Positions 6,687 to 63,582 of a stretch of DNA of 64,000 nucleotides are shown here, piece after piece. Every line of letters begins with the position of its first letter. Within the stretch, counting starts at the first letter, position 1. The translations under genes were made by a program, and so were the position numbers. The notes beneath the pieces were generated by a model, which was given only the letters and a program-made list of their open reading frames with translations, was not told the DNA's origin and made no database searches. Source of the DNA: a virus; IMG/VR virus record IMGVR_UViG_3300025769_000090, positions 11,240 through 75,239 of that record. The stretch is one strand, 5' to 3'.

Positions 6687-7850
6687 ATGGCACACTATTT
6701 TATTTTTCCCGAAAAAGATGCGACAATATACTCGCACCCTACTAATCAATCTCTTAACACAGGGATAGATGAAATATTAACTTTAAGAGATATAGCCTCA
6801 AACACAGACTTAAATTATTATCCTAGTAGATTTTTAATTCAATTTAAGACTAAAGACTTTGTAGACGTAATTAATAATAAAGTAGGAAATAAAAACTTAA
6901 TTACTGCTAGTTTAAAAGCTTATCAAACTGAACATAGAGAATTAATAGGTGATCAACACTTAGAAATCTACCCATTAGCTGAAAGCTGGGTAAATGGAAC
7001 TGGTAGACTTTCAAACACTCCCCAAACTACAAATGGTGTATCTTGGAAATTTAGAGATGGAAGTGATAACTCATTTTCTAATACATTCGGCACAGCTTGG
7101 ACTACGAGTAGCTTTACCGCGGGCACCACAGGTAGTTTTATAAGTGATGCTAAAGGGGGTGGTGTCTGGTATACTGGATCTGGTTTTGAAGTTGAAAGAA
7201 CATATGGGTTTAACGATGAAATAGATATATCTTTAGATATATCTACCCCAGTTTTAAAACACTATAGTGCTAGCAATGATTCTGCTGTTTACCCTTCTGG
7301 TATAACTAATAATGGTTTTTTAATCAAACGTTCGGGCTCCCAAGAATTCACAGCTAAAGATGAAGGAGAGTTAAATTTCTTCTCCATGGACACCCACACC
7401 ATATACCCACCTTATTTAGATATAGCGTGGGATGATTCATCGTATGATACAGGATCTGCTACAAGCGATAAGATCTTAAACACAGGTGAAGTTTATGTTA
7501 CCCTAAGAAACAATAAAGCAGAATATAAAACTATAGAAGAACCTAAATTTAGACTTAATGTTAGAGAATTATACCCTACACGTAGGTTTACTACTTCTTC
7601 AAACTATTTAGATGTAAAATACTTTACTAGTAAATCATTCTATTCATTAGTTGATTATGCCACAGAAGAAACTATTATACCATTTGGTCCAACTTCTAAA
7701 TTAAGTGCTGATTCTGAAGGTATGTATTTCAAAATGTATATGAATGGTCTTCAAGAGGAAAGATACTATAAGTTACTTTTCAAACACGAAAATGAAGACG
7801 GTATTAGAGTATACGATGAAAACTACTACTTTAAAATCACTAGATCATAA
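6687..7850 (+). CDS. Virion structural protein, baseplate cluster
   Basis: KDATIY...NTGIDEIL...SRFLIQF beta-sandwich-like pattern; context. Confidence 0.65.
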   Translation: MAHYFIFPEKDATIYSHPTNQSLNTGIDEILTLRDIASNTDLNYYPSRFLIQFKTKDFVDVINNKVGNKNLITASLKAYQTEHRELIGDQHLEIYPLAESWVNGTGRLSNTPQTTNGVSWKFRDGSDNSFSNTFGTAWTTSSFTAGTTGSFISDAKGGGVWYTGSGFEVERTYGFNDEIDISLDISTPVLKHYSASNDSAVYPSGITNNGFLIKRSGSQEFTAKDEGELNFFSMDTHTIYPPYLDIAWDDSSYDTGSATSDKILNTGEVYVTLRNNKAEYKTIEEPKFRLNVRELYPTRRFTTSSNYLDVKYFTSKSFYSLVDYATEETIIPFGPTSKLSADSEGMYFKMYMNGLQEERYYKLLFKHENEDGIRVYDENYYFKITRS

Positions 7851-8731
7851 TGGCATACAGCAGCTACAGTGGCAATAATTCGCCTGCAAATAGCAAAGTT
7901 ACTATAGATTCTGATGAAGATCAGGGTTTACCCATAGATAATTTTGATAAGGAAGAAACCCAATTTGATACCCAAGGTGATATAGTATCTATAAGTTCTA
8001 CTATCATTACTGATACCCCCCGTGAAAGAAATAGTAGCGGTGAAATTAAGTTTCGCCGTGAAATATATAGTCCAGCAGCGTTTAAACAACAGGTAGATAC
8101 TAGTTTTAGTGAATTAAATAATACTAGTGAAATAGATGTTTCTACATTTTTCAGACAATACAGTAGATTATTTTACGATATTCCTAGACAAGGTGATGAT
8201 TCCCATGAAACCCTTATAAGGGAAAGCAGTGCATTTTTTACCAATTATGAAGATGCTAGAGATGCTCAAATAGATGTTTTAGAAGCCCAAATAAGCGATC
8301 TTACCCAACAGCTAGCCCTCTTAAATGCAGAAAATCTTGGATTACAAAATGCTAATGATGTTACTACTATAACATATGGCTCCGATTTAGACGATGTAAT
8401 TCTTACTTGGAATGCACCCCTTGCACAAAATGGTTTAGAAGCACGAATCGGACAATTATCAAGAAACTCCAACCAAGTGGAAAACCTTACAGGCACGCCT
8501 TTAGAGACCAATGTAAACTTTAATAATGAACGTCCTGAATTAATACGTGATGCTAGACAAGCATTTGAAAAAGGAGGTTCACAGGGTATTAGAGCTAATG
8601 AAAATCAAAGAAAATTAAGTGAGTGGAAAGCTGACTTTGAACGCAGATCAAGCGGGCGTAGAAAAAGAGACCTAAACAACATTCTAAATGCTATCTACCA
8701 ACTTATATTAAAAGACATAAACGAAGGATAA
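7850..8731 (+). CDS. Hypothetical protein with central coiled coil
   Basis: Translationally coupled (TAATG) on both sides. Confidence 0.7.
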   Translation: MAYSSYSGNNSPANSKVTIDSDEDQGLPIDNFDKEETQFDTQGDIVSISSTIITDTPRERNSSGEIKFRREIYSPAAFKQQVDTSFSELNNTSEIDVSTFFRQYSRLFYDIPRQGDDSHETLIRESSAFFTNYEDARDAQIDVLEAQISDLTQQLALLNAENLGLQNANDVTTITYGSDLDDVILTWNAPLAQNGLEARIGQLSRNSNQVENLTGTPLETNVNFNNERPELIRDARQAFEKGGSQGIRANENQRKLSEWKADFERRSSGRRKRDLNNILNAIYQLILKDINEG

Positions 8732-11988: not shown

Positions 11989-13274
11989 TGGCAAATAATC
12001 CTATATCACAATCAAATCAAGTTGAATTCAACGATTCAGTTTTAACAACTAAGGCTTGGAATTCATCTCGTTACGACGGTAGACAATTATCAGCAGCTAA
12101 AATTAATAGATTTACTGTTGGAGATTCTACTTACGGTAAAACACCAGTTATCCAAAATTATAGTAGAAATATTTATATAGGGAACGATATAGTAGGTATG
12201 AGTTCAATTACTGGTGAGGCTGAAGATAATTCACTCCTTCAATTTGATAATTTTTCTTATGCGCAAACTAACACCTACATTACTGTAAATGAAGATGATA
12301 GCATTACCTTTAATACATTAAATGAACCAATCGAAGACGATTATAGTGAAATAATAGGTTTTTACCAAGCATTTTATGATGATTTTAAACAAGGTACCTA
12401 CTGTAAAATCATTATAAATGATTTAAGCCAAAAAAATAATCTTAGACCATCATATCCTATATGGTTTAATGGGGGACAATTCCAAAAACTACTCAAATTA
12501 ACCCCAGGTAATAGCTCCCATTTAAAATTCACGAAAACGAATAATGCCCTTGATTATGATCATGGCCCAAATGAGACTACAGGATTTTTAAGTACTATGT
12601 ATGATGAAACTTTACTAAATGAGTTCTATACAGGATCATTAGTAGGTGAAATTTCTTTCCAACCCCCAAGAGATGGTGATGATGGTGTTTTCCCCATTTC
12701 CTCAGAAACAGGTATATTAGCAGAAAATATAGGAAATTTAATTGATTCAGCTATAAGTTATAAAAATAATTCAAGTTATAAAGGTGATAAAAGATTTTTT
12801 GCGTCATTTCTTATTTCGGGTAGTGAGGCTCCTATAAGAACCATAACAACAGGTAGTGTTGTTTCTATGCAGCAAACCTTTAGATCAAACAACCTAGCAG
12901 AGCTATCTACGGCTGAATTTCAGTCACACAGCATAAGCACCCATGTAATCAATTTTACAGAAAACACTAAACTTCACCAAGATTATATTTCAATTAACCA
13001 AACTAGTGATCCTATGACTCCTCCTCTTCATGGATCAGGAAGTGTTATATTTTCTCAAGTAAACGATACTACCCCTTCATTATTAATAGAACTTAATAAA
13101 TCCAGTGAATTACCTGAGGGAACAGGTAATAAACCTTTTATTATATTACCTCATAATATACATCCTTTTATTAAAGATAACCTTTTATACTTCCTCACCC
13201 AGGCTGGTATTGATGTAGGAGGAAACACATCTACTGTACTAAAAATTAACCCTAGCAACAGACTCCTTAAATAA
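11988..13274 (+). CDS. Putative baseplate structural protein
   Basis: Coupled to the previous gene; composition and context. Confidence 0.6.
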   Translation: MANNPISQSNQVEFNDSVLTTKAWNSSRYDGRQLSAAKINRFTVGDSTYGKTPVIQNYSRNIYIGNDIVGMSSITGEAEDNSLLQFDNFSYAQTNTYITVNEDDSITFNTLNEPIEDDYSEIIGFYQAFYDDFKQGTYCKIIINDLSQKNNLRPSYPIWFNGGQFQKLLKLTPGNSSHLKFTKTNNALDYDHGPNETTGFLSTMYDETLLNEFYTGSLVGEISFQPPRDGDDGVFPISSETGILAENIGNLIDSAISYKNNSSYKGDKRFFASFLISGSEAPIRTITTGSVVSMQQTFRSNNLAELSTAEFQSHSISTHVINFTENTKLHQDYISINQTSDPMTPPLHGSGSVIFSQVNDTTPSLLIELNKSSELPEGTGNKPFIILPHNIHPFIKDNLLYFLTQAGIDVGGNTSTVLKINPSNRLLK

Positions 13275-13278
13275 TATA

Positions 13279-13285
13279 TATTTAT
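13279..13285 (+). promoter_or_regulatory. Putative late promoter TATTTAT
   Basis: Intergenic, upstream of ATG 13304. Confidence 0.55.
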
Positions 13286-13303
13286 AAACAAAACCAAATT
13301 TAA

Positions 13304-13984
13304 ATGGGATATTTAGATAATTCAAGCGTTATTGTAGACGCTATATTAACCAAAAAAGGCCGCGAACTTTTATCACAACAAAACGGGTCTTTTAATATTA
13401 CTCAGTTTGCTTTAGCAGACGATGAGATTGATTATACGTTATATAACGAAAATCACCCAAATGGATCTGCTTTTTATGGTGAGGCTATTGAAGCATTGCC
13501 ACTAATTGAAGCAATTCCTAATGAAAATAATACTATGGTATCTAAACTAGCTACTCTTAATAGAGGGTCTACAATTATACCAACTATTCAAGTGCAATCT
13601 ACAGCTATTTCAATTACTAGAACTGGTGGAGGAGCTAATAATACATTTACCATTACACCTAGTACTAATGGGTTAACTGATACTGTTGAATCAGGTTACT
13701 CTTTCACAGTAGCTGATAGAAGAATCCTTTTCTCAGGTACAGGTGTTGGTGGTCCTGATCCAACCACTTTTGAGGTCCCATTCACAGGAACAGCTTTATC
13801 CCAGACATTTGTGGGAACATCATTCACTGGTACTGCTTTAAAGGGCGCTACATTATTTGGTAGTAACACAGCTTTAACCACTTCTATTATAGTTGTAGGA
13901 CTTGACACTGGTGCTAGAACAACCATCACCCTTACAGTAACCAAAGAATCATCAGGTGGCACAACAGCAGCCCGCAATCTATAA
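13304..13984 (+). CDS. Baseplate/tail-fibre attachment protein
   Basis: AILTKKGRELL...FNITQFALADDEIDY resembles the N-terminus of collar/fibre-attachment domains. Confidence 0.6.
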   Translation: MGYLDNSSVIVDAILTKKGRELLSQQNGSFNITQFALADDEIDYTLYNENHPNGSAFYGEAIEALPLIEAIPNENNTMVSKLATLNRGSTIIPTIQVQSTAISITRTGGGANNTFTITPSTNGLTDTVESGYSFTVADRRILFSGTGVGGPDPTTFEVPFTGTALSQTFVGTSFTGTALKGATLFGSNTALTTSIIVVGLDTGARTTITLTVTKESSGGTTAARNL

Positions 13985-13999
13985 TTAATTTAAATTAAC

Positions 14000-15088
14000 A
14001 TGGCAACTTATACACAATTTGACGAAAATTTTGACGTTGTAAACGACATATCTAGAGTATTTTCTAACGCTTGGTCTGGTATTACTCCCAATAATGATTT
14101 AGGAGCTAATCATTTTTCTTCTAGCACTCAATACGTAACTGATAATCCTACAGCTAGTGGTGCGTTCTTTATGGAAGTATATAGTACAGATCCAGACGCT
14201 AATCCAACTACGGCAGAAGTACAATATTCTATAGCTTATGGCAGCAGAACGGGAAAAGGAGGATTACAATTTAATGATGGTGTAGGTGCTGAAAATTTTA
14301 CTTCTACTAAAGCTATTTATAGTCAGTATAGAAACCTAGTATTTGGTGGAGATGAAACACAAAATTTTTCATTTAACGGCTACGTTCCTGATGATATTTA
14401 TGTTATTAATGTAAATAGGGCTAGATATAAAAACGCCCTTAGATTAGGTAATTTGAATCTTGTTATTTCAGGTGCCACATCAAACCAGCCCCTACATCTT
14501 ACAGATGATTCAGTTACAACATCTGGATCAGCAAATGCTAATAGAGCAGGTGTAGGAAGAGAATTTAATTTAGTATCAGGTTCTAATGGAATAAGATTAG
14601 GTTCAAGTAACACATATGTAACTGATAGTGGTTCATATGGATTTGTATACCCAGATGCTGGATTTATTATTTTAAATGCGGATGCTTTAGACCATAGTGG
14701 CTCCGCAGCCGCATTTGCAGCTGGGGGTGGTGGAACTAACCTAGGTACAGTTGTTACTTCAGACAACGAAGCAAAGAATCCTATTTTGTTACAAGAAGCT
14801 TTAAAACTAGGAGGTAGCTTTATATTAGATTCTCAAGAAGATATATCTAGTAAATTTTATTTCTGCAGAGCTCGAAATTCAGAATTTAACTATTCTACTA
14901 ATGACTCATTTACTGAAGCCGATGGGACTATAAAATATGATTCTATGATTGATAATCCACAAGTTTATATTACTACTGTGGGATTATACAATGATAATCA
15001 AGATTTATTAGCAGTTGCTAAATTAAGCCAACCTCTTCCGAAAGATTTTACTAAAGAAGCCCTTATTAAGGTTAAACTAGACTATTAA
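14000..15088 (+). CDS. Baseplate/tail-fibre attachment structural protein
   Basis: C-terminal YITTVGLYNDNQDLLAVAKLSQPLPK motif. Confidence 0.62.
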   Translation: MATYTQFDENFDVVNDISRVFSNAWSGITPNNDLGANHFSSSTQYVTDNPTASGAFFMEVYSTDPDANPTTAEVQYSIAYGSRTGKGGLQFNDGVGAENFTSTKAIYSQYRNLVFGGDETQNFSFNGYVPDDIYVINVNRARYKNALRLGNLNLVISGATSNQPLHLTDDSVTTSGSANANRAGVGREFNLVSGSNGIRLGSSNTYVTDSGSYGFVYPDAGFIILNADALDHSGSAAAFAAGGGGTNLGTVVTSDNEAKNPILLQEALKLGGSFILDSQEDISSKFYFCRARNSEFNYSTNDSFTEADGTIKYDSMIDNPQVYITTVGLYNDNQDLLAVAKLSQPLPKDFTKEALIKVKLDY

Positions 15089-16836
15089 TGGCTGGTATAT
15101 TTAAAAAATTCAGTGCGAACGACATAAAAATAACACCTTTTGAAGCCCATAAGCAGTATAATACTACTAATTTGGCTTCAATTGGTGCTAGTACTGAGTC
15201 TTTAGCTTGGAGTGGGGCTAGTAAAAACACATTTTCTACAGGAAGCAGACTTTACTATCAAGTAGATAAGCTTTATTATAGAAATTATATTAATGAAAGG
15301 GCACATAGATTAGAAATAGATAGTGCTAATTATAAAGTTCAAGAAAGAAGATTATATCAAAGTGCTAGTTTACTTTCATTAAGCCAAAAGACATTTGGCT
15401 CTCAAATTCAGCCAGGAACATTTGAACTCTCAGGATCTAAAGGATCAACCCAATTTAATCTTAAAGATGATGGGTATGGGAATTTATATGACATAAATTT
15501 AGGAAAAGATAATTTTCCCGATGAAAAACATAGAGTATTTTACTTAGCTCCAATTAAAGGTTTTAAACGTTCTGATTTAACTTTAAATTATGAAACAGGA
15601 AATACTTATATAAATACTCCTTTTTCAGGAGGTTATTCTGGTACGATTTTAGATGATTCATATTTCCAAAATAAAGTTACATTTTTTAATAATGCATTTG
15701 TAAAATCAGGACAGTCTACAACTGGTTTATTTAATACTCCCTATATAACACAAAATGCTAAAACTGATTCTAGAATTACTATTAAAAATGCTCCTTATTT
15801 AAACTTTAATGAAGATGATTTTGCTATAAGTTTTTATTTCATCCCCGGATCCGATATGCCAATAGCTTTATCTTCAACCCCACGATATATTTTAACTAAA
15901 GAAGGAGCTCAAGATTCTTTCCCCTTAGGATCAGAAGCAGGAGGAAATTATTCAACAAGCACATCTGGAGCATTAGATATTACTACTACACCCGCAGCTA
16001 ATAGATTCCCATACAGATTAACTTTATCAGGAAGTAATGTTGGGGTTCCTACTAATAATTTTGCCGCAACTGGTTCTTTAGTATTTGAAAGGTTTGATGG
16101 AGATATAAAATCTTCTGTAGCTGGGGTTGTATTTTTAAGCGCGAGTTCAAATGTAAATGTACCCATCCATGTACTTGTTCAAAAATCTGGTGATAATTTA
16201 GTGATATATAAAAATGGAACCCAAGTTGCAACCAGTTCAGATTTAACAACAGGGACATGTCAAAATAATAGCGATATAACTATATTTAAAAAGCAAAATC
16301 CCGATGGAACATATAGTAGTATTTCTTCCTCGGCTACAGCTGAAGCAGCTTGGGCTGGGCAATTATCAGAACAGGGAGACGGATTTGCCATTCAACAATT
16401 ACAAATGTGGGATAAAGCTTTAACAGAAACAGAAATTCAAATGGTTTCAGAATCATTTACGGGCACTTATCCTGTAGGTAATTTATTTTATGATAATGGA
16501 TTTACTATTATTACTCACCCTAAATATATGGATGTATTTAATGGAGGTGAGTTAAATACTTTAAAATACAAAAATACCCATTTAATTACTGAAAATGAAT
16601 ATCAGTGTAATGTAAAAGAGGAAGAATTCGAATTTACTACTAATAAAACAGCATTAAAAGTTTCTCCTAATAATGAAGTAGCAGATTTCACAACAGGATC
16701 AGCTTTTAAACCGTACGTAACTACAGTTGGTTTATATAATGACAATGGAGAATTATTAGTAGTAGGAAAATTAGGACAACCAATTAGAAAAAGTAGTGAA
16801 ACAGAAACTACATTCGTTATAAGATTTGATACATGA
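15088..16836 (+). CDS. Structural protein with inserted LamG/ConA-like domain; paralog of 14000-15088
   Basis: C-terminal YVTTVGLYNDNGELLVVGKLGQPIRK; internal DFAISFY...HVLV...IYKNG...IQQLQMWDKALTETEI LamG pattern. Confidence 0.65.
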   Translation: MAGIFKKFSANDIKITPFEAHKQYNTTNLASIGASTESLAWSGASKNTFSTGSRLYYQVDKLYYRNYINERAHRLEIDSANYKVQERRLYQSASLLSLSQKTFGSQIQPGTFELSGSKGSTQFNLKDDGYGNLYDINLGKDNFPDEKHRVFYLAPIKGFKRSDLTLNYETGNTYINTPFSGGYSGTILDDSYFQNKVTFFNNAFVKSGQSTTGLFNTPYITQNAKTDSRITIKNAPYLNFNEDDFAISFYFIPGSDMPIALSSTPRYILTKEGAQDSFPLGSEAGGNYSTSTSGALDITTTPAANRFPYRLTLSGSNVGVPTNNFAATGSLVFERFDGDIKSSVAGVVFLSASSNVNVPIHVLVQKSGDNLVIYKNGTQVATSSDLTTGTCQNNSDITIFKKQNPDGTYSSISSSATAEAAWAGQLSEQGDGFAIQQLQMWDKALTETEIQMVSESFTGTYPVGNLFYDNGFTIITHPKYMDVFNGGELNTLKYKNTHLITENEYQCNVKEEEFEFTTNKTALKVSPNNEVADFTTGSAFKPYVTTVGLYNDNGELLVVGKLGQPIRKSSETETTFVIRFDT

Positions 16837-23951: not shown

Positions 23952-23952
23952 T

Positions 23953-50720: not shown

Positions 50721-50755
50721 ATTTACTACAATAATAAAAACTAAAATTAATAATA

Positions 50756-50911: not shown

Positions 50912-50918
50912 TATTTAT
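50912..50918 (+). promoter_or_regulatory. Putative late promoter TATTTAT
   Basis: Directly upstream of the structured leader. Confidence 0.55.
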
Positions 50919-50925
50919 TATCAGT

Positions 50926-50982: not shown

Positions 50983-50993
50983 TAAAATAAAAT

Positions 50994-51437: not shown

Positions 51438-51440
51438 TAA

Positions 51441-52208: not shown

Positions 52209-52210
52209 TT

Positions 52211-52990
52211 ATGGCAACATTCGGAGGACCACGACCAATAGTATCGGATGGATTAGTATTTACTTTAGATGCTGCTAACGTTAAGTCATATCCTGGTAAT
52301 GGAAACACAGTAACAGACCTAATCAACGATAATGATGGAACCATTCAAAATAGTCCTACATTTATATCATCCGAAAACCAAGGGGTATTTTCATTTGACG
52401 GGCAAGATGACCATATAATCCTTGCTCCTATTCACGGTGGTAATGATGATAATAACAATTATGCATGGACAGCAGATAATAGTGTAGGGAGTAATACATT
52501 TTGTTATGAAGTATGGTTTAAAGGAACTGATACTGTGGGTGAAATAATTTCTAAACCTTGGAATGGTAGTGGGAGATATAACTTTAGAGTTGATGATGGG
52601 AGATTTAACCTCCTCACAGGTAATGGAGGTGCCCCTGAAGATTCTGATTCATCTAATAATCTTAATTTTGACTCCAGTATTGCCGATGGAAATTGGCACC
52701 AACTAGTTATATGGGCTAATAGTACACAAATGGGATACTATATCGATGGAAATAGTTCATCCGATTCTGAAGACCATAACCTTACAGGAGGTATTTCTAA
52801 TGCGGGAAATAATAGATTACCCTTAATACTAGCGACATTATATGCTTATGGGGATGGAGCATCTACTTGGCCTCAACCTACCCATGCTGTAGAAGGTAAA
52901 GTCGGTATTTTTAGAAAATATAGTAAAGTACTCTCAGCATCTGAAGTACTTCAAAATTATAATGCAATTAAGCCAAGATTTAGCCTTTAA
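52211..52990 (+). CDS. LamG/ConA-like lectin-fold virion protein, paralog of the previous gene
   Basis: GLVFTLDAAN..SYPG, YEVWFK, WHQLV, YIDG, LSASEVLQNYN. Confidence 0.85.
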   Translation: MATFGGPRPIVSDGLVFTLDAANVKSYPGNGNTVTDLINDNDGTIQNSPTFISSENQGVFSFDGQDDHIILAPIHGGNDDNNNYAWTADNSVGSNTFCYEVWFKGTDTVGEIISKPWNGSGRYNFRVDDGRFNLLTGNGGAPEDSDSSNNLNFDSSIADGNWHQLVIWANSTQMGYYIDGNSSSDSEDHNLTGGISNAGNNRLPLILATLYAYGDGASTWPQPTHAVEGKVGIFRKYSKVLSASEVLQNYNAIKPRFSL

Positions 52991-52994
52991 TCTA

Positions 52995-53031
52995 TATTTA
53001 TAATTGTCACCTTTTGGACAGTGAAAAAAGG
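52995..53031 (+). promoter_or_regulatory. Late promoter plus leader hairpin of the long fibre gene
   Basis: TATTTAT 52995-53001; CCTTTT-GGACAGTGAA-AAAAGG 53010-53031. Confidence 0.5.
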
Positions 53032-53039
53032 CATAACTT

Positions 53040-56000
53040 ATGGCAAACGAATTTATAGCAAGAAAAGGGCTAATTGCCCTTAATAACTCCAGTATATCTG
53101 GGAGTTTAGGTGTAACTGGAAGTTTTACGGTTGAAAAAAGCGGATCAACTGTATTTGAAGTAGTAGGATCTACAGGTCAATTATTTTCCATTGAAGATAA
53201 CATGCAAGGTTCACTCTTTGCAGTTTCTGATATCTCAGGATTACCAATTTTAGAAGTATTCTCAGACGATAAAATAATAGCAGGCGCTTATGGGAAAAAT
53301 ACTTTTGTAGTAAATGACGATAAAGTTGGTATAGGAACCACATCACCGGGTTCATTATTATCATTAGCTAAAAGTGATGCCACTGTATATGATAGTACTG
53401 ATGATGATGGTCAGAGAAATGTTGGTCCTACTATTTTATTAGAAAATACTAGCTCTGTTAATAATACGTTTGGTCAAATATTATTTGATTCAGACGATTC
53501 AAATCAAGGTATAGCAAGAATAGCATTCTTAGATACGGGTGAGGCAAGTACTGATATAGCTTTTGTTACTGAACATATTAATAATAAATCAGAAAAACTA
53601 AGAATTGCTAGTAATGGTAAAGTAGGTATTGGAATCGATGGTCCGGCTAGTAGATTGCATGTATTTGAGGATAGTGCTACTACTAGTACAGGTGCTGGCA
53701 TTACAATAGAAAATGATGGAGCCGGCGACGCGGTGTTACAGTTTTTGTTAACTGGTACTAAGAGATGGGTAACAGGTATTGATAATTCGGACGGAGATAA
53801 ATTTAAAATAGCATCTTCTGCAGATTTAGCGTCTGCTGCGAGATTTATTATAGATGGCGGCACTGGCAATGTAGGTATTGCATATAATTCTCCTTCCAAC
53901 AAATTACACGTAAGTGGAAATATTGCTTTAAGAGCAAATACCTTCTCAGGCAGTGAAGATTTTAGCAATATCATAGGAACCCGAGGAAGAACCTTTATTA
54001 AAGATGTTATTGCGGATGCTTCATACGAAGATACTCCCTTCATTAACACTGAAACTTTTAATGCATTTGCAGGTGCAGATAAATGGGCTGCTATTACAGC
54101 ATCTAATGTATATAATAGTTATGTAGGTAGTGACCCCCCAGACTCTTATACTGAAGGTAATCTTCAACCTGAAGATCTCCGAGAATCAAGCATATATAAA
54201 AACTCTTATAAACAAATGTTTAGAGTTGGGGGTACTACTTTCCAACCATATTTTTCTGAATCTATACAAGGTAATGATTTAGATGAAATAGTAATTGAAA
54301 TAGATCATACTGATGAACCACTAAAACATCATTCTTTAGTAGGTATACAATTTACTCACCCTAACTGGAGAGCCAGAAGAGTTAAAATCGAAGCCTATAC
54401 AGGATCTAACGTTTCACCCGGGTGGGTTACAGGATTAGATATTAATAATCACAATGAAGCTACATTAGCTGCTCAGATTAATGGGGCTAACCTAGGTATA
54501 CAAAAGACTAAATTTACCCTAGGTAGACCACTAAATAGTGGTAGTTACAATTATATAAGAATCGCCAAAATATTTGGTTACGATTTTAAAGGAGTTAGTT
54601 CTGGGGAAAACGATGCAGTTAAAACTGGCACGTATTACTTAGGTAAACACGATGATTCCGCACATTATGGTACTATATACCCAGCATCTGGAAATGTAGA
54701 TTTAGGTAAAAGTAGTGACGTATATGCAAGAATTTACGCTGATACGAGTTCACTTAATAGAATCGAGCATAATGGTGATAGTGATACATTTATGCAGTTT
54801 GATAATGATCACATCCAGTTTAACGCTGGAGGTGTTCAAATGCTAACTATTAATGAAAGTGGTGGTGGTCAGGATAAGATTATTATTAACCAAGATGCTG
54901 CAGATGTTGATTTTAAAGTAGAAAGTGTAGGCGATAGTACCCTCCTATATACTGTAGGATCAACTAATAGAGTTGGTATTGGTACTGATTCTCCAGGCGA
55001 AAAATTAGAAGTAAACGGTAATGTTTCTGTACTGGGTGATATAACAGCAAGCGGGGCTATCAATGCTGATGTATTGACATTAGCAGGTACTTCAATTATA
55101 GAAAATCAAATACTTATAATTTCAAGCAGCAATATATTTGGTGATACTCCCTCCGACACCCACGAATTTAATGGTAATATAACAGCATCTGGTAATATAA
55201 GTGCAAGTGGAGATATAATAGCTAACGGAGGTAACTTTAACGATGATATTACTATAGATAGTGGTGATATTACTATAGATAGTGGTAGTTTTAGAGTAAA
55301 TACCTTTAATGAGGGTTTACAATTTTATAATGGATCAAATTATACTAGTAATAGAATAATACTTTCGACTGCTCAGAATATGCAATTTATAGCTGGTAAT
55401 GTATTCCAGTTTTATACAACGGTAGAAATATTAAATAGCAGTAGTCTTACATTTAGAAATCAAGGTAACTCAGCTAATATTAAAATCCGCAATGCAGGTT
55501 CAGGATCTAATTTTTCTAGGTTAGATATTCAAAATTCTGGTCCCCTATCTAATGTATTAATGTCAGTTAGTTCTTCGGGCAACGTTGGTATAGGAACTAC
55601 TACACCCGCAGAAAAATTAACAGTATCAGGTAATATAAGTGCAAGTGGTGAAATAAGAGGCCAAAAACTTATAGCTGATTTTGATGGTTCTACTGGAGGG
55701 CTTAGATTTATCGATCCTGACGATGGGAATATAAATGACAATAGAATAACTTTATCGTCGGCGAAAAACATGCAGTTTAAAGCTGATGGGGTTTTCCAAT
55801 TCTCTAATGGTCATGTTCAGGTACTTAAAGGAAATCAACTCACCCTTAGTGATGAAGATAATCAATCTAAATTTAAGATCCAAAACATTTCCCCAAACAC
55901 AGGGTCTGGTGATGAAAATAATATAACATTATCCGTTAAAAATGAATCTGGTACTTCACTCCTTAGAATATCTGGTTCAGGCAATACAAATTTAGCAGGT

Positions 56001-57668
56001 AATCTTGAAGTATATACATCATCTGTAGTAATGGGAGAATATGCTATCCAAGCATTAACTACTAGTGGTCCTAAAATTAATTTTGGGGCTACGACTGATT
56101 TTGATAGCTTTATGAGTATTGGGGCTTTTAGTAGTATTAATAATATAGATACAAAGAATAGAAACTTCCATTTATACGGTACTAATACAGCAACAGGTTT
56201 CTTTTTTAATGAAAGTGTAGGTAAATTTGGTATAGGAACAACTAGTCCTTCAAGTTTATTAGAAGTAAATGGTGGTAACCACAAAGTTGATGGTGGTAAT
56301 TTAAGAGTAGATAATGGCAATTTACAAATTAGCCATTCTTCTGCTGGTGGAATAGGTGGTCAATTTGAACAACCTACTACCCAATTATTAACATTTAGAT
56401 TCGATTCTGATAGATTTAGATTCTGGGCTGGTGGGGCAGAACGATTAACTATTTTATCCAGCTCAGGTAATGTTGGTATAGGTACTAGTACCCCAAGTGA
56501 AAAATTAGAAGTAATAGGTAATATAAGTTCTAGTGGGACTGGATCGTTTAATAAGGGGGGTAGGTTTAATGGTAGGGTAGGTATAGGACAATCTAATCCT
56601 ACCGTGCCATTAGAAGTAATAGGTACAATTAAACAAAAACAAGGACCTGGGTACTCTAATTATGTTGAACAAACAATAAATGAAGCCCAATTAACTATTA
56701 ATGCTAATGCTGTTGGGGGACACAATTCAGCTATTAAATTTGCTGCTAATAGTACTGAAATTGCCAGAATTGATGGTGCTGGTAGTATAACAGCCTCAGG
56801 TAATATAAGTGCTAGTGGTTTCTTATTTATTTCAATGTCGACAACTGGCAGTGATTTAAATACCGTTATGTATGATACTACTACAGGCAGATTATATTAT
56901 ACTGGAAGTTATGGTGGAGGGGGAGGCAGTGGTGGTAGTGATAATTTAGGCAACCATACAGCTAGCCTAGATTTAGATATGGGTAATAATGATATTAATA
57001 ATGTTTCTACAATTAGTACTTCTACAATTAATGTTTCTACAATTCAAAGTGATACTAATTTAATCATAGGGGCCAACACAAATGATATCCAACTTACAGG
57101 AGTTAGTAATATAGATCTTAATAGCGGTAAAGTTATTTTAAACGATAATGGACACATTACAGCGTCAGGTGAAATAACTGCTAACAGTGCTATTATTTTA
57201 AATAATATAAGTGCAAGTAGTGTTACTACAGGTCTTGTAAAACTTGATGAAAATGGCACTACTTTAGTAAGTTCATCAAATGATTTAACCCACGTAAGTG
57301 AAAGCAAAACCTCTAGAGGAGAAATAGTCAAATTTGGTGATAGTACTACTGAATTAGGTAAATTATACTACTATTCAGGAAGTGAAGAGTGGACAGCTAC
57401 AAGCCAAACAGACATAGATGCTCGAGGAGCTTTATTAGGAATAGCTCTTGGAACTAATAGTAGTACTGATGGTATAATTTTAAAAGGAATTGCCCATATT
57501 TCGGGCACAGTAACAGTAGGAAATCAAGTATATATGGGTGCCACATCAGGATCTGCAACTACTACACCTCCAAACACAGCAAATAGTACACTTAGATCTA
57601 TAGGACATGCATTAAAAGATAATGTAATATATTTTAATCCTTCACCAGACTTTATAATAATAAAATAA
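53040..57668 (+). CDS. Long fibre protein (1542 aa)
   Basis: Repeated GNVGIGT..P...L.V.G units and ITASGNISASG motifs. Confidence 0.85.
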   Translation: MANEFIARKGLIALNNSSISGSLGVTGSFTVEKSGSTVFEVVGSTGQLFSIEDNMQGSLFAVSDISGLPILEVFSDDKIIAGAYGKNTFVVNDDKVGIGTTSPGSLLSLAKSDATVYDSTDDDGQRNVGPTILLENTSSVNNTFGQILFDSDDSNQGIARIAFLDTGEASTDIAFVTEHINNKSEKLRIASNGKVGIGIDGPASRLHVFEDSATTSTGAGITIENDGAGDAVLQFLLTGTKRWVTGIDNSDGDKFKIASSADLASAARFIIDGGTGNVGIAYNSPSNKLHVSGNIALRANTFSGSEDFSNIIGTRGRTFIKDVIADASYEDTPFINTETFNAFAGADKWAAITASNVYNSYVGSDPPDSYTEGNLQPEDLRESSIYKNSYKQMFRVGGTTFQPYFSESIQGNDLDEIVIEIDHTDEPLKHHSLVGIQFTHPNWRARRVKIEAYTGSNVSPGWVTGLDINNHNEATLAAQINGANLGIQKTKFTLGRPLNSGSYNYIRIAKIFGYDFKGVSSGENDAVKTGTYYLGKHDDSAHYGTIYPASGNVDLGKSSDVYARIYADTSSLNRIEHNGDSDTFMQFDNDHIQFNAGGVQMLTINESGGGQDKIIINQDAADVDFKVESVGDSTLLYTVGSTNRVGIGTDSPGEKLEVNGNVSVLGDITASGAINADVLTLAGTSIIENQILIISSSNIFGDTPSDTHEFNGNITASGNISASGDIIANGGNFNDDITIDSGDITIDSGSFRVNTFNEGLQFYNGSNYTSNRIILSTAQNMQFIAGNVFQFYTTVEILNSSSLTFRNQGNSANIKIRNAGSGSNFSRLDIQNSGPLSNVLMSVSSSGNVGIGTTTPAEKLTVSGNISASGEIRGQKLIADFDGSTGGLRFIDPDDGNINDNRITLSSAKNMQFKADGVFQFSNGHVQVLKGNQLTLSDEDNQSKFKIQNISPNTGSGDENNITLSVKNESGTSLLRISGSGNTNLAGNLEVYTSSVVMGEYAIQALTTSGPKINFGATTDFDSFMSIGAFSSINNIDTKNRNFHLYGTNTATGFFFNESVGKFGIGTTSPSSLLEVNGGNHKVDGGNLRVDNGNLQISHSSAGGIGGQFEQPTTQLLTFRFDSDRFRFWAGGAERLTILSSSGNVGIGTSTPSEKLEVIGNISSSGTGSFNKGGRFNGRVGIGQSNPTVPLEVIGTIKQKQGPGYSNYVEQTINEAQLTINANAVGGHNSAIKFAANSTEIARIDGAGSITASGNISASGFLFISMSTTGSDLNTVMYDTTTGRLYYTGSYGGGGGSGGSDNLGNHTASLDLDMGNNDINNVSTISTSTINVSTIQSDTNLIIGANTNDIQLTGVSNIDLNSGKVILNDNGHITASGEITANSAIILNNISASSVTTGLVKLDENGTTLVSSSNDLTHVSESKTSRGEIVKFGDSTTELGKLYYYSGSEEWTATSQTDIDARGALLGIALGTNSSTDGIILKGIAHISGTVTVGNQVYMGATSGSATTTPPNTANSTLRSIGHALKDNVIYFNPSPDFIIIK
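55245..55286 (+). repeat. Perfect 21-nt tandem duplication within the fibre gene
   Basis: GATATTACTATAGATAGTGGT twice (DITIDSG x2). Confidence 0.9.
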
Positions 57669-58448
57669 ATGAGTAATATAAAAAAAATACTGATACCTGG
57701 ATTTACACCATCTCCTACTTCATTTGGGGGTAATGAAATTATTATAAATCCGGTTGATGGAAAAATTTATATAAAAAATACCCAAAATAATACTTTGAGG
57801 GTAGTTAACCAAGATAAAGATAGTAATACCCCCTTAGATGGTGATATACTCATTAATAAAAAAATAGAATTTAAAGAAACTAAAAACTCAGATAGTATTT
57901 TGTTTATAAGTTCTTCTAATAACCAATCAAGAATTGGTATTGGAACTATTAACCCTAAATCAAATATAGATTTTAAAGCAGTTGAAGACTCTACTATAGG
58001 AACCGAAATTATATTAAGAACTGCTCGTTCTGCTAGGGGTGCTCTAACAGGTGATGAGGGGGGTAGTATTAATTTTACTATTGACAGTGGCTCATTTAAT
58101 GATTTAAAAACTTCTGGCTCTTTAGCAAAGATTAAAACAATTGTTAATGAAGTGGGGGTTGGTGGTGCCCAAGGATTATTAGCTTTTACTTTATCGAAAG
58201 GAGCAGGCGGTGAAGGAATTGACGCTTTTAAATATGGGTATGCTATAGGAGGCGAAGCTACATTTGCTCAAATTCAAACTGGTTCTCTAATAATGCATGA
58301 TTTTAGTAGTGGTCAACCTGCTAGACTCAATATGAATGATTCCAATGGAGACACAACATTTGAAGTTTTTCAGGGACATATTACAGCTTCTGGGGATATC
58401 AGTGCAAGTGGTAATATAATAGGTAATATAAACGGAGGAACATTTTAA
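57669..58448 (+). CDS. Fibre-related protein
   Basis: EIIINPVDGKIY N-terminus, RIGIGTINP, C-terminal INGGTF. Confidence 0.72.
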   Translation: MSNIKKILIPGFTPSPTSFGGNEIIINPVDGKIYIKNTQNNTLRVVNQDKDSNTPLDGDILINKKIEFKETKNSDSILFISSSNNQSRIGIGTINPKSNIDFKAVEDSTIGTEIILRTARSARGALTGDEGGSINFTIDSGSFNDLKTSGSLAKIKTIVNEVGVGGAQGLLAFTLSKGAGGEGIDAFKYGYAIGGEATFAQIQTGSLIMHDFSSGQPARLNMNDSNGDTTFEVFQGHITASGDISASGNIIGNINGGTF

Positions 58449-58804
58449 TGGCTGTAAGAACACCTTTTAATTGGAATAAAGCAAGCTTTTCATGGGATAG
58501 AGGATCTGCTTTTCTTAACCAAAGTAAAACCCCCTTTACATGGGATGACGTAGCATTAATTATACAAGTTGCAGAAGTCCTAGAAAAACTTGGGCCTTAT
58601 GCAGATGGTGACGTACAAGACGATGCTATACAGGACCTTGTTAAAGATGATCCTGAAAAGAAAAAACGACTTATTAAGCTAATCTGTAAAGTTCAAGGAA
58701 AAATATATAAAGAAACAAAAGAAATAGAAGAGGTTAAAATAAATATCGAAGATGTTAAACTCCTTATAAAGGAGGCACTAGGTATTAACGTAACAATACT
58801 TTAA
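58448..58804 (+). CDS. Hypothetical protein with N-terminal F.W repeats
   Basis: PFNWN..FSWD...PFTWDD. Confidence 0.7.
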   Translation: MAVRTPFNWNKASFSWDRGSAFLNQSKTPFTWDDVALIIQVAEVLEKLGPYADGDVQDDAIQDLVKDDPEKKKRLIKLICKVQGKIYKETKEIEEVKINIEDVKLLIKEALGINVTIL

Positions 58805-58807
58805 GAC

Positions 58808-59380
58808 ATGTACAAATTATACACAGACAAACAAGAAATCTTTGAGTGCGACATTCAACTCGAAGGAGCATCGTTAAATAGTTCAAACGCTCGTTTAATT
58901 ATTGAAACTGATGATTTATCATTACTTTTTAAAGGTAGTATTAATAGCCAAGGAAAATGTAAGATTCCAGTAAAGCGTCTTAAAGGACTATTAGGTGAAG
59001 ACATTAAAGGTACTATTAAATTAGAAGTTATAGCAGAAGATACTTACTTCATTCCTTGGGAATCCGCCTTTACAGTTGAAGCTTCAAAGAAAATCCAAGT
59101 CGAAGTTAAGTCCCAAAGTCAAGGAGAAGTAATTACTGAATCTAAACCTTCAGTAAAAGTTAAAAATATTAAAGAAGAAGTTACTGTTAAAGAAAAAAAT
59201 CACGTTCTAAACATCCTTAAGCTTCTTATTAAAGAAGATATTAGTTTAAAAAATGTTAAATTTAGAAAAAATAAATTAAACTACGTAGTAGCTACTTACT
59301 TAGATAAACATCCTATTAATGAATCTCAAAAAGACGAAATAGTCACAGGTGTACTTAACGGTCTTTCTAAATTAAGATAA
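58808..59380 (+). CDS. Hypothetical protein; beta-rich N-terminus, helical tail with ITE/IKE/INE sites
   Basis: ORF in operon. Confidence 0.7.
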   Translation: MYKLYTDKQEIFECDIQLEGASLNSSNARLIIETDDLSLLFKGSINSQGKCKIPVKRLKGLLGEDIKGTIKLEVIAEDTYFIPWESAFTVEASKKIQVEVKSQSQGEVITESKPSVKVKNIKEEVTVKEKNHVLNILKLLIKEDISLKNVKFRKNKLNYVVATYLDKHPINESQKDEIVTGVLNGLSKLR

Positions 59381-59387
59381 ATAAGTT

Positions 59388-60137
59388 ATGGCATTACCTG
59401 ATTTTACAGGCCAAAATATAGAAGATACTTATCAAAGAGTATTACAAACGGATGGAGGAACCCTCCGTGACGGTACGGGTTCTTTAGTTACCCTTACTAA
59501 TATAACATCATCCGGTAATATAAGCGCAAGTGGTACTATTATTGGATCAAATTTAAGTGGCACTAACACAGGGGACCAAAATATATCAAACTTAGCAATC
59601 ACGGGTAGTGATATTATATTTAACCATATAACAGCTTCAGGTGATATAAGTGCTAGTGGTACACTTTTTGCCGATGATATTAGAGCTACATTACCCACAG
59701 GAATAGATAATTCTGTGGTAATACTTGATGCAGATGGGCGTTTAAAAACTGATGAAATAGATTCAGATGTATTTGAAACTGGTAAATTAGCAAAATCATT
59801 TGCTAACTTTGATAGCTTTCCTGATTATTCTAATCAAGTAGCTGTTTGGCGTAGTAATACTTCACTAAGAGGTTTTACCCCCATTACAGCTACCAGTGAT
59901 GGAGTTTTAACAGCTACTGTTGTTTCAGCTAGTTCGGCAACTGCATCTTTTATTGCAATTTTATCTGTAGATAAACTTAAAATTAATGGTGTACAAATAG
60001 GTGAAAGAGTAGGAACCGACACTAAACTAGGTAACACAGCCGACACTAGAACTATTATACAATCACCTAAACTCGAAGTAACAGATTTAAATATAACAGG
60101 AGAGATTACAGGCTCTTTTGATGGAGGCACCTTTTAA
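59388..60137 (+). CDS. Fibre-related protein
   Basis: ISASG motifs; C-terminal FDGGTF. Confidence 0.72.
   Translation: MALPDFTGQNIEDTYQRVLQTDGGTLRDGTGSLVTLTNITSSGNISASGTIIGSNLSGTNTGDQNISNLAITGSDIIFNHITASGDISASGTLFADDIRATLPTGIDNSVVILDADGRLKTDEIDSDVFETGKLAKSFANFDSFPDYSNQVAVWRSNTSLRGFTPITATSDGVLTATVVSASSATASFIAILSVDKLKINGVQIGERVGTDTKLGNTADTRTIIQSPKLEVTDLNITGEITGSFDGGTF
59502..59579 (+). repeat. 78-nt dispersed repeat, copy 1 (copy 2 at 61065-61142)
   Basis: Encodes IT.SG.ISASGTI.GSNLSGTNTGDQ; identical 20-nt core TTAAGTGGCACTAACACAGG. Confidence 0.8.
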
Positions 60138-60152: not shown

Positions 60153-62339
60153 ATGGCTAGTACAATAAAATTAAAAAACAGCACAACCGCAGGCAATTCA
60201 CCTAGTTCACTTGAAACTGGTGAAGTTGCAATTAATGTTGCGGACGGTAATTTGTTTTATGGCAGCGCTTCCGCTGTATTACAAAACTTTGTTGTAGATG
60301 AGCTAGAAGTAAAAGGTAACCTTACTGCCCAGCAATATATAGTTTCTTCATCTGTTACCCATATGACTACTTCATTCAGTAGTGGTTCAACTGTTTTTGG
60401 AGATACGCAAGATGATACTCACTTATTTACAGGTAGTATAAATGTTACTGGCAGCATTACATCTGAAAGATCAGTTGATGGGGGTGATAATGTAATACAA
60501 GTTATTAATTCTAACACAGATACAGGTACCGATAAAGGTGCAGGAATTGAATTCTTACATGGAAGTGCAAATATTAGTGGTGAAAGTGGCATTAATAGAG
60601 TAGCAGGTAAGATATTATCTACTAAAGCTGGTACCTATAATGGGACCACCGACGCTATTGATTCTAACTTAGAATTTTACACAGCTAAAGATAATTCTAA
60701 TATTAAACGATTAGAAATAGATGAAGAAGGAGATTCTACATTTTTCGGAAATCTTCATATAACACAAAGTAATCCTTCTACAAATGAAAAGCTTTTTACT
60801 ATTGGTGAAGATGGTACTGAAAGGTTTCGAGTAGATGCTGAAGGTGATGTAGTTGCTATAGGTGTAGGAACTTTTAACAAAGTCCAAGTAACTAATGATG
60901 GTAATCAATCTGGCCCAGCTATAGCTTTTGGAACTGATACAAATACTGGAATTTACCAACCTGCTGATAATAAAATTTCCCTCCAAGCAGATGGAGGTTC
61001 CACTGAATTAACAGTTGATACGAGTGGAATTGATATAGTTGGTGATTTAGATATAAGTAGCCATATAACAGCCTCAGGTGATATAAGTGCAAGTGGTACT
61101 ATAGTAGGTTCTAACTTAAGTGGCACTAACACAGGTGACCAAGATTTATCTGGTCTAGCATTAAAAACTGCTATTAGTGGTGCATTTACAGCGGCTAGTG
61201 CTTCGCTTAGCACAAGGGTTACTGCAAACGATGCTAAATTAACTGCTAACACATCTAATGTAACTAGTGCGGGTGCATTAATGGATTCTGAAGTTACATC
61301 ATTATCATTAATTAAAGGATTAACAGCAGCACAAATTAGTGGTTCATTTACAGCTGCTAGTGCAAGCTTAGCTGCTGATATAGTTACTAATGCCGGAAAT
61401 ATAGGTACTACTACAAATGCTTTAACAGTTGATAACGCTACTTTACAACTTAACTCAGGCACAACATTTAATGGCAGTGCTGCACGAACAATATCAATTA
61501 AAGATGGTGGAGTTGATTCAGATGCCTTAGCCGCTAATGTAGCAGTTACACAATTAACATCCTCTATAATTAGCGCAAGCGGCGACATATTCTGTACCAA
61601 CATAACAATAGCAGAAGATATAGTTTCAGTAGGTGATGATATAATCCTTAAAGATAATCTAGCAGTCTCTAGTTCAGGCGGATCTATTCAATTTAGGGGA
61701 ACAGCAGGTGGAAGTAATGAATCTATTACATACCTTGATTCAGGAGGATCAGGAAGATTTGCCCTGTTATTCCCTGGTAGTGATGTTGTAGCCATAACAA
61801 ATAGAGCATCTAATGGTAATGTTGAAATTAGAGCTAATACTTCTACAGCGGGCGCTAGTGGGGAAGTTACAGTTGCTAATTTTGAAGATGATAAAATTAC
61901 CCACAATGTTAAATCTGAAATTAGACTAGCTAAAACTTCTAATACAGATGCTGATTATAATGGCGATGTAGTTTTCTTTGGTGGTACTACTAGTATGACG
62001 GCAGGTAGAATATACCACTTTAAATCAGATGGCACCTGGGAATTAGCAAATCCAAATGCAGTAGCCACATCAGATGGTTTATTAGCGGTAGCCTTAGGAG
62101 CAGCCTCAGATACTAATGGTATGTTACTTAAAGGTATGGTTACATTAGACCACGATCCTGGTGCTGTTGGAGACGTATTATATTTAGACGAACAACAAGT
62201 TAGCAGTGCTTACGGAGCAGCTACCTCAGGTGCTCCCGCAGGTACGGGAGATGTAGTTAGAATTATTGGTTATTGTTTAGATGCATCAAATGGTCAAATT
62301 TATTTTGATCCTTCTAAAGACCATATTGTTCATGCATAA
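60153..62339 (+). CDS. Fibre protein
   Basis: PSSLETGEVAINVADG.LFYG N-terminus, THLFTGS; C-terminal domain shared with 53040-57668. Preceded by TATGTAT at 60141-60147. Confidence 0.8.
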   Translation: MASTIKLKNSTTAGNSPSSLETGEVAINVADGNLFYGSASAVLQNFVVDELEVKGNLTAQQYIVSSSVTHMTTSFSSGSTVFGDTQDDTHLFTGSINVTGSITSERSVDGGDNVIQVINSNTDTGTDKGAGIEFLHGSANISGESGINRVAGKILSTKAGTYNGTTDAIDSNLEFYTAKDNSNIKRLEIDEEGDSTFFGNLHITQSNPSTNEKLFTIGEDGTERFRVDAEGDVVAIGVGTFNKVQVTNDGNQSGPAIAFGTDTNTGIYQPADNKISLQADGGSTELTVDTSGIDIVGDLDISSHITASGDISASGTIVGSNLSGTNTGDQDLSGLALKTAISGAFTAASASLSTRVTANDAKLTANTSNVTSAGALMDSEVTSLSLIKGLTAAQISGSFTAASASLAADIVTNAGNIGTTTNALTVDNATLQLNSGTTFNGSAARTISIKDGGVDSDALAANVAVTQLTSSIISASGDIFCTNITIAEDIVSVGDDIILKDNLAVSSSGGSIQFRGTAGGSNESITYLDSGGSGRFALLFPGSDVVAITNRASNGNVEIRANTSTAGASGEVTVANFEDDKITHNVKSEIRLAKTSNTDADYNGDVVFFGGTTSMTAGRIYHFKSDGTWELANPNAVATSDGLLAVALGAASDTNGMLLKGMVTLDHDPGAVGDVLYLDEQQVSSAYGAATSGAPAGTGDVVRIIGYCLDASNGQIYFDPSKDHIVHA
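61065..61142 (+). repeat. 78-nt dispersed repeat, copy 2
   Basis: See 59502-59579. Confidence 0.8.
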
Positions 62340-62899
62340 TGAGTTATTTAAATCAAACACTAACATTCGAATCGGATAAGATTTATTATCACGAAGATAA
62401 TAATGAACTTCAAGTAATGATGGATTGGGAAGCCCCTATTATGTCTGCTTCCGCAGCATATATCTGTCAAAATGGTGGCGATATTTTAGAAATTGGATTT
62501 GGTATGGGTATTTCCGCAGGATATATTCAATCACATTCCATTAATTCTCATACTATTATAGAAAATCATCCTGATGTAATTCCTAAAGCACAAGCATGGG
62601 CTTCTGGAAAATCAAATGTAACTATTGTGACAGGCAGTTGGTACGATGTCAAAAATGATTTATCAACTTATGATGGGTTATTTTATGATACTTGGGGAGA
62701 CGATAATATGGATCAATTTAGCTCTTCATTATCATCTTTAATGAAAGTAGGAGGGGTAGCTACATGGTGGAATAATGAACCATCATCTACTAATTTTTAC
62801 AACATCCCTAATGTAACTTATGATACCCATAATGTAACCCCTACTGAAAATTGTTATTTTAACAATACACTTTACTATCTACCAAAATGCCAACACTAA
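62339..62899 (+). CDS. Class I SAM-dependent methyltransferase, Rmt2/GAMT-like
   Basis: VMMDWEAPIM, ILEIGFGMGI, HTIIENHPDV, G.W.D, YDGLFYDT. Confidence 0.85.
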   Translation: MSYLNQTLTFESDKIYYHEDNNELQVMMDWEAPIMSASAAYICQNGGDILEIGFGMGISAGYIQSHSINSHTIIENHPDVIPKAQAWASGKSNVTIVTGSWYDVKNDLSTYDGLFYDTWGDDNMDQFSSSLSSLMKVGGVATWWNNEPSSTNFYNIPNVTYDTHNVTPTENCYFNNTLYYLPKCQH

Positions 62900-63582
62900 A
62901 CGCATCTAAAACAGGAACTGCTATAGGTCAATCTAGTGCTACTTTTGCAACGGCAAGGCAAACTGGCTTTAGCGTACAAGCCAACCCTACAAATAACCAA
63001 GTTACTGCTATTTCATATACAGCTCTTGCGGGTCGTGGTTCTCTTACCCATGGTATAAGGAGAACATTTCTTTACTTTGATACCAGTGGCTTAACAGGGA
63101 CAATATCAAACACTTCACTCAATATTGTAGGTAACACAAATGACTCAGCTGATGTTATTGTTTTAAAAAGTACAGCCTTTGGTGGGGACGGAAGTTCAAA
63201 TATAGCAACCTCAGATTTCTTTTCTTCAATAGATTTTAGTACAGCATATAGTAGTGAATATGATTCATGGACTGCTACAGGCACTAATAATATTAACCTT
63301 AATTCAACAGCAAATACTGATATACAAAATAATGATGCTTTTATTTGTGCTATAGTTGAACATAGTCATGATTATGGTGGGGGTGGTGGTTCGGCAGCTA
63401 CCACAGCAACATCTAATATATCAGGTATAGGCTTTGGAATTACAGTTACTCTTACTTATACAGAAGCGGCAGCATCAGGGCCGGCGAATTTAACTTCATT
63501 AAATGGTATAGCAAAAGCAAGTATTACATCAACTAATACAATAACTTTGGCTAACATAACTTCTATTAATACAATAGCATAA
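62887..63582 (+). CDS. Virion-associated beta-sandwich-like protein, hypothetical
   Basis: RTFLYFDTSGL.G.I...SL.I pattern; Ser/Thr-rich. Confidence 0.65.
   Translation: MPTLNASKTGTAIGQSSATFATARQTGFSVQANPTNNQVTAISYTALAGRGSLTHGIRRTFLYFDTSGLTGTISNTSLNIVGNTNDSADVIVLKSTAFGGDGSSNIATSDFFSSIDFSTAYSSEYDSWTATGTNNINLNSTANTDIQNNDAFICAIVEHSHDYGGGGGSAATTATSNISGIGFGITVTLTYTEAAASGPANLTSLNGIAKASITSTNTITLANITSINTIA

Follow-up and report, generated by a model that had tools for sequence, protein, structure and literature searches.

An ordered [ST]-[GA]-S motif on outward-facing virion proteins of a T4-type phage clade: a candidate signal for O-glycosylation

The DNA discussed here is a stretch of 64,000 nucleotides (the window), positions 11,240 to 75,239 of the IMG/VR virus record IMGVR_UViG_3300025769_000090, which is itself a 75-kb contig judged 50% complete. 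All genes of the window are on the + strand, its GC content is 33%, and it is a portion of a T4-type myovirus whose closest cultured relative is Flavobacterium phage vB_FspM_immuto (below, immuto; capsid identity 54.7%). It holds baseplate, capsid, neck and fibre genes (Table 1), and their products are scattered with a short ordered tripeptide, [ST]-[GA]-S. The excess of this tripeptide in outward-facing virion proteins is real and strong, and in our opinion it may be a tag that a phage-encoded enzyme recognizes. PHROG and Pfam searches returned no match for most of the proteins that carry it, and none for the carrier at 6687-7850.

Table 1. Features of the window that bear on the motif (counts are observed vs expected)
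Feature	Position	Strand	Evidence and motif content
gp6-like baseplate wedge	4801-6684	+	
Baseplate-module protein, 387 aa	6687-7850	+	8 [ST][GAS]S vs 1.55; core 6 vs 0.83, q 0.0035
Motif-rich baseplate-module protein, 1085 aa	8731-11988	+	15 vs 4.6; core 10 vs 2.4, q 0.012
Two adjacent baseplate/fibre proteins, 362 + 582 aa	14000-16836	+	6 vs 1.8, 9 vs 2.7; both q<0.05
Major capsid protein, T4-type	37743-39440	+	Residues 73-121 and 324-545 align to T4 gp23
Capsid insertion, residues 160-319 of 37743-39440	38220-38699	+	Both capsid motifs, TAS193 and SAS204
PhoH	39530-40195	+	
gp13-like neck protein (head-tail adaptor Ad2)	40235-41389	+	PHROG 211, E 1e-12; 4 motifs vs 1.0, p 0.018
Virion protein, 430 aa, central FN3/Ig-like sandwich	44649-45941	+	17 vs 4.6; the window's densest carrier
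Three fibre-like proteins, 674, 882, 147 aa	45973-51437	+	18 vs 7.1; 25 vs 6.5; 4 vs 1.1
Fibre block: 1542-aa tail fibre, then 259, 249, 728 aa	53040-62339	+	34 vs 11.2; 6 vs 1.4; 9 vs 1.9; 13 vs 6.4
GAMT-like methyltransferase, 186 aa, inside fibre operon	62339-62899	+	PDB 3orh guanidinoacetate N-methyltransferase, E 9e-16

Throughout, expected values are those of composition-preserving shuffles, and the proteins of the window are divided into a virion-module set of 21 and a remaining set of 41. The pattern [ST][GAS]S occurs 182 times in the virion-module proteins, where 63 are expected (z 17), and 7 times in the others, where 13 are expected. A first-pass annotation, made from the letters alone, had counted this pattern by hand and had named such shuffles as a check. 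All its counts are reproduced (17 in 44649-45941, 8 in 6687-7850, 4 in the neck protein, 2 in the capsid, 3 in 62339-62899), recounting again gave 0 each for primase, terminase, portal, scaffold, PhoH, the oxidoreductase and the 1054-aa protein, and the shuffles leave the totals far above expectation. The pattern itself holds for G or A in the middle and is weak for S. SGS (4.0x), SAS (3.9x), TAS (3.5x) and TGS (3.1x) have the top over-representation among the frequent tripeptides of the virion-module proteins, SSS (1.9x) and TSS (1.3x) a weak excess. For the core with G or A, 12 proteins are individually significant at q<0.05.

The motif is also directional. Of the reversed orders, SGT stands at 1.6x and SAT at 1.0x, and the remaining orderings of the same residue classes are at about 1.1x; in total the window has 60 T[GA]S against 25 S[GA]T, the expectation being 22 for either. 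The third position is strictly Ser. Being ordered, the motif argues for a chiral reader and against bulk surface chemistry. A logo of 1885 non-identical instances from the window and its relatives has I, V, L or F before the motif, F, L, Y or G after it, and then I or V two residues on, with charged residues and proline depleted on both sides. That the motif is often followed by F, L or I, as had been remarked earlier, is thus borne out, and I/V/L/F are found in front of it too.

Composition was rejected as the cause because of the z of 17 and the flat value for the other orderings. Paralogy was rejected as well: the paralogous segments are indeed the densest (4.6x), yet when all window-paralogue segments are masked the excess is still 2.5x. 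Codon usage within the motif is that of the background, so selection acts at the level of the protein, and a bias at the DNA level was rejected on the same ground.

Where the motif sits was counted in 80 capsid and 77 sheath homologues. The capsid insertion, which evolves fast (32% identity) and falls between the two blocks alignable to T4 gp23, has 300 motifs against 64 expected (4.7x); the conserved core, residues 320-565, has 10 against 27 (0.37x) and the N-terminal part 21 against 32. From the alignment, we take the insertion to be at the position of the surface insertion domain of T4 gp23/gp24. Its motifs fall in 53 distinct columns, none of them held by 80% of the sequences, and each capsid keeps 1-8 motifs; what is conserved is density, not position. 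The sheath behaves likewise, with 438 against 114 (3.8x) in residues 61-300, 0 against 8.6 in the first 60 residues and 1 against 14 (0.07x) in the conserved C-terminal 200 residues, a part that aligns to the inner domains of T4 gp18. Judging by this positional correspondence with gp23 and gp18, the variable regions that bear the motif are probably solvent-facing. Interior and non-virion proteins (portal, scaffold, tube, hub, tape measure, terminase) have no excess.

The 44649-45941 protein has 54 family members, down to 30% identity, and every one of them has a 3-7x excess; in this family, as in the sheath, some sites are near-invariant and others turn over. In its AlphaFold2 model (pLDDT 86) the motifs are found in helix, in strand and mostly in loops directly after a strand. 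A Foldseek search of the PDB with the model gave nothing, and VIA-align finds weak FN3/Ig-like matches only (Z 4-5.6). The earlier claim that the motif marks exterior virion proteins and spans unrelated folds is supported, in the form of an overlay specific to the lineage on domains that are probably outward-facing.

The overlay extends well beyond the window. In 80 uncultured relatives, each sampled as the capsid gene with 10 kb on each side, there are 2542 motifs against 854 expected, and T[GA]S outnumbers S[GA]T by 1219 to 371, with an expectation of 389 for either. Immuto has 53 against 12 in its tail spike (1053 aa), 13 against 1.75 in a 373-aa protein and 8 against 2.6 in the sheath; its excess is restricted to structural genes, and the 85 kb of non-structural genes are at 0.7-1.0x. 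Microcystis phage Mel-JY01 has 2.1x in the structural region, and Rhodothermus phage RM378 has a directional 2.3x that is concentrated in one gene block. T4, on the other hand, has 19 where 33 are expected and no single enriched protein, the marine Methylophilales phage Melnitz, with its S/T-rich fibres, has 1.07x and leans the opposite way (35 T[GA]S, 61 S[GA]T), and cyanophage S-RSM4 has a mild 1.4x without direction, so that a general property of myovirus structural proteins or fibres was rejected. Because the hosts of the carriers span three phyla, the reader is more plausibly encoded by the phages than by their hosts. A search of the literature found no paper that describes the motif.

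Within the window, the carriers are partly built from common modules. The 362- and 582-aa proteins have a C-terminal module in common, and the three fibre-like proteins after the 44649 gene an N-terminal one of the form W-K-K-V-x-x-SGS...[ST]AS. In the fibre block, whose first gene (53040-57668) matches PHROG tail fibres, there are tandem hexads of the form h-I-T-A-S-G-D-I-S-A-S-G-N-I, and two genes, 58448-58804 and 58808-59380, have a motif count of zero. The period-6 block is common to 50994-51437, 53040-57668, 57669-58448, 59388-60137 and 60153-62339, where it is the motif's densest form; it may be a short solenoid or an element that joins modules. For 59388-60137, tblastn found no match among cultured phages.

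What could read the motif? The complete genome of immuto has an 11-kb cluster of sugar genes at 49172-59988, which encodes four glycosyltransferases (two GT1, two GT2) together with a DegT aminotransferase, a PglD-like acetyltransferase and a protein of the sugar-O-methyltransferase-like kind; according to the annotation of the record there are also an epimerase, a mannosyltransferase and another aminotransferase. The first enzyme of the cluster, gp181 (480 aa), matches PF00534 (Glycos_transf_1) above the cut-off, and its AlphaFold2 model (pLDDT 78) has a GT4-like GT-B fold of two Rossmann domains, with GlgM, PimB', MshA and BshA as the best Foldseek matches (E 1e-13 to 1e-12). Adjoining it is gp180, a more divergent glycosyltransferase-like partner. 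The best PDB sequence match of both is a chlorovirus glycosyltransferase, B736L (PDB 3oy2), weak as it is (E 0.0016 for gp181, 0.09 for gp180); the gp181 model matches B736L in Foldseek with E 1e-11.

As a family gp181 is large, at least 8000 protein clusters matching it, and among 50,697 phage records its homologues are limited to immuto phages, Mel-JY01, RM378 and a single uncultured jumbo phage, plus a weak match in S-CBS4; this list does not include T4, S-RSM4 or Melnitz. Of the 10 long IMG/VR records of the clade, 8 have a homologue with 62-92% identity, among them every one of the 4 that are at least 90% complete. Wherever this was checked (immuto, the complete related record G001, RM378) the partner gene lies beside it, in RM378 as the adjacent pair p013 (similar to gp181, E 1e-31) and p014 (similar to gp180, E 7e-7); immuto and G001 have the sugar-gene cluster as well, further GT2 genes adjoining the homologue in the latter. 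The Mel-JY01 protein of 1226 aa with the annotation FkbM methyltransferase (L007:4750-8430) contains a gp180-like region (E 1.6e-9), and its gene adjoins that of the structural protein richest in the motif in this phage (14 against 3.2).

Our reading is that the ordered motif is a recognition tag for a phage-encoded enzyme, and most likely one for O-glycosylation of outward-facing virion proteins; we give it a probability of about one half. According to this reading, an enzyme acting on finished virion proteins in the cytoplasm would read aliphatic-[ST]-[GA]-S-(F/L/Y/G) and would glycosylate one of the two hydroxyl residues of the motif. Priming would be done by a conserved retaining GT-B glycosyltransferase of the GT4 type and its adjacent partner, gp181 and gp180 in immuto, and the glycan might then be extended by the further glycosyltransferases and the amino-dideoxy-sugar pathway of the cluster, giving a glycan coat on the particle. 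Selection would retain the motif where capsid, sheath, neck, outer baseplate and fibres face the solvent. It is by inference that we link the enzymes to the motif, take the modification to be a sugar and assume that this particular phage has the enzymes. The sharper version, in which a GT4 pair specific to these phages uses the five-residue code aliphatic-[ST]-[GA]-S-aromatic/aliphatic as its acceptor sequon and every outward-facing domain has an amino-sugar coat, we advance more tentatively. The earlier proposal of a virion-wide surface-modification signal fares well with respect to the placement on outward-facing domains and the presence of enzymes in relatives, and its suggestion of O-glycosylation is plausible. 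Its expectation that the modifying enzymes lie elsewhere in the genome, and the search for a glycosyltransferase cluster that it called for, came out positive in the relatives and negative in the contig itself, which is 50% complete.

Several observations weigh against this reading. The contig at its 50% completeness, including the 11 kb upstream of the window, has no recognizable glycosyltransferase, nor have the five fragments of the closest relatives (24-56% complete); since all these records are incomplete, the negative is not decisive. In one relative (L184), the 17 kb upstream of the counterpart of the contig's first gene hold a peptidase, type IX secretion cargo and ThyX, and no glycosyltransferase. 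Shared descent largely confounds the co-occurrence of enzymes and motif, which concerns mostly one broad clade and the distant RM378, and no relative that lacks the enzymes was found, so that there is no case of enzyme loss to compare. The jumbo phage (LR756508.1) has a lone gp181 homologue, 31% identical, without the partner and without any motif excess in the 75 kb examined. GT4 enzymes usually use lipid or sugar acceptors, and the sugar cluster could serve the remodelling of the host envelope instead. Finally, two sites of the 44649 family are near-invariant (SGS294 in 54 of 54 members, TGS77 in 52 of 54), and the hydrophobic flanks would suit the end of a β-strand, hence a structural role too.

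These last points lead to the alternative that survives best, which we still regard as unlikely: that the motif is a structural or assembly element of this lineage, free of any modification, that was inherited and multiplied in the outer domains of the clade. It could, for example, cap the ends of β-strands, the small residue packed inward and the two hydroxyls forming hydrogen bonds outward. The alternation of hydrophobic, hydroxyl, small, hydroxyl and hydrophobic residues would fit such a cap, as would the many instances directly after a strand end in the 44649 model and the near-invariant positions, and the tandem hexads of the fibres do resemble a solenoid repeat. On the other hand, the motif is found in helix, strand and loop and spans unrelated folds; T4, S-RSM4 and Melnitz have homologous T4-type capsid, sheath, neck and baseplate proteins that need no such motif; the conserved structural cores lack it; and in the capsid insertion its positions turn over while the density is kept.

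It is rather improbable, in our opinion, that the reader is something other than a glycosyltransferase, namely an enzyme of phosphorylation, of acylation or linked to methylation, or a binding protein such as a decoration, cement or assembly factor. Direction and confinement to the surface indeed require a reader without specifying which, there is a GAMT-like methyltransferase within the fibre operon, and the clade has many conserved genes without known function. However, no candidate for a kinase or an acyltransferase was seen in the window, and in the relatives no conserved modification machinery other than the sugar cluster was identified.

That the general O-glycosylation system of a Bacteroidota host modifies the virion seems highly improbable. 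The host of this phage is probably a Bacteroidota, since type IX secretion cargo genes are present in the contig and in a close relative, and this speaks for such a system. But its sequon, D-[ST]-[AILVMT], is not enriched in the virion-module proteins (42 against 53 expected, 0.79x), so that it was rejected as the signal, and the motif is distinct from it, as had been supposed; the same excess of [ST]-[GA]-S is found in the Microcystis and Rhodothermus phages; and Bacteroidota O-glycosylation is periplasmic, whereas virions are assembled in the cytoplasm. As for an artefact of composition, low complexity or repeated modules, the carriers are rich in S, T, G and A and their paralogous segments are the densest, yet the shuffles, the other orderings, the 2.5x of the unique segments and the equally S/T-rich fibres of Melnitz and S-RSM4, which have no directional excess, leave it practically no chance.

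Some other features of the locus deserve a short description. The methyltransferase call for 62339-62899, made at first sight of the sequence, is confirmed by the similarity to guanidinoacetate methyltransferase; the gene overlaps both of its neighbours, and its product has 3 motifs against 0.67 (p 0.027), not significant after correction. This methyltransferase might modify virion proteins. Three S/T-rich proteins of the same modules have no motif at all, 7850-8731, 13304-13984 and 62887-63582 (0 against 3.0 for the last); perhaps these are chaperones, components of the virion interior or proteins that do not belong to the virion. Two tandem paralogues, 42302-43180 and 43173-44402, separate the neck genes from the 44649 protein; they are 64% identical over 285 residues and have neither a family match nor the motif. 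Two adjacent proteins, 51441-52208 and 52211-52990, are ConA-like lectins/glucanases (Laminin_G_3), and 15088-16836, the 582-aa protein, has weak Pfam matches to ConA-like domains and to the second domain of Mtd; all three are probably carbohydrate-binding tips.

Upstream of the window there are large signal-peptide proteins, in the contig at G000:C1:2724-7423 (L011) and as the relative's counterparts at L184:4462-6561 and 12654-16463. Their homologues in a close relative bear Por_Secre_tail and CHU_C sorting domains and are adjoined by a peptidase M43 gene, and in that relative the genes with type IX secretion sorting domains adjoin the counterpart of the contig's first gene. Going by these domains, the proteins look like type IX secretion cargo encoded by the phage.

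The interest of the glycosylation reading is easy to illustrate. If it is true, virion glycosylation in tailed phages would have its first defined sequon, and a very common group of aquatic T4-type phages (more than 600 related contigs in each collection scanned) would make its own glycan coat, with sites that can be read from the sequence. Such a coat would bear on the stability of virions, on their stickiness to particles and mucus, on rates of grazing and decay and on the recognition of receptors, and glycoengineering would gain an O-glycosylation tag that is short and portable and whose enzyme works in the cytoplasm. The reading is open to a direct test, since immuto is in culture together with its host, Flavobacterium sp. 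LMO8.

How much of this would be new is best judged against known systems. Reportedly, as cited in PMC12582341, O-glycosylation of mycobacteriophage virions by phage-encoded glycosyltransferases was described by Freeman et al. in 2023 in Cell Host Microbe. Glycosylation of virions by phage enzymes is known already from mycobacteriophages, and the new part would be a short ordered sequon that an aquatic, abundant clade of T4-type phages has across its outer domains as a whole. As in the mycobacteriophage system, we deal with tailed phages among which glycosyltransferases of their own are found and with presumably exposed virion proteins as the proposed acceptors. But the phages here are T4-type aquatic myoviruses of Bacteroidota, cyanobacteria and Rhodothermus, and their system is a predicted one. 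Its enzymes are of another kind and are accompanied by a larger set of amino-sugar genes, and the candidate acceptor, a short ordered motif, is dispersed among many proteins.

The resemblance to the chloroviruses is of another kind. Chlorovirus NY-2A, whose B736L is the best PDB match of gp181 and gp180, is likewise a virus with its own cytoplasmic glycosylation machinery; however, the resemblance of the enzymes is weak and generic for GT4 enzymes, and the chlorovirus host is eukaryotic. The glycans of chlorovirus capsids are N-linked, at atypical sites.

In the GtfA/GtfB system, which acts on the serine-rich-repeat adhesins of Gram-positive bacteria, the enzymes are likewise a pair of adjacent GT-B proteins (about 480 and 440 aa), and Ser also stands between small residues, similar to S-A-S. 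Its acceptors are long disordered Ser-rich repeats, whereas those proposed here are isolated tripeptides or short hexads in folded domains. A pair of the GtfA/GtfB type was rejected: Pfam finds no DUF1975/GtfA-specific domain in gp181 or gp180, and GtfA is not among the top fold matches. The Bacteroidota sequon, lastly, is like the motif a three-residue code for O-glycosylation, and it belongs to the probable host phylum; it is not enriched in these proteins, and [ST]-[GA]-S, which is in excess here, recurs in phages of other phyla.

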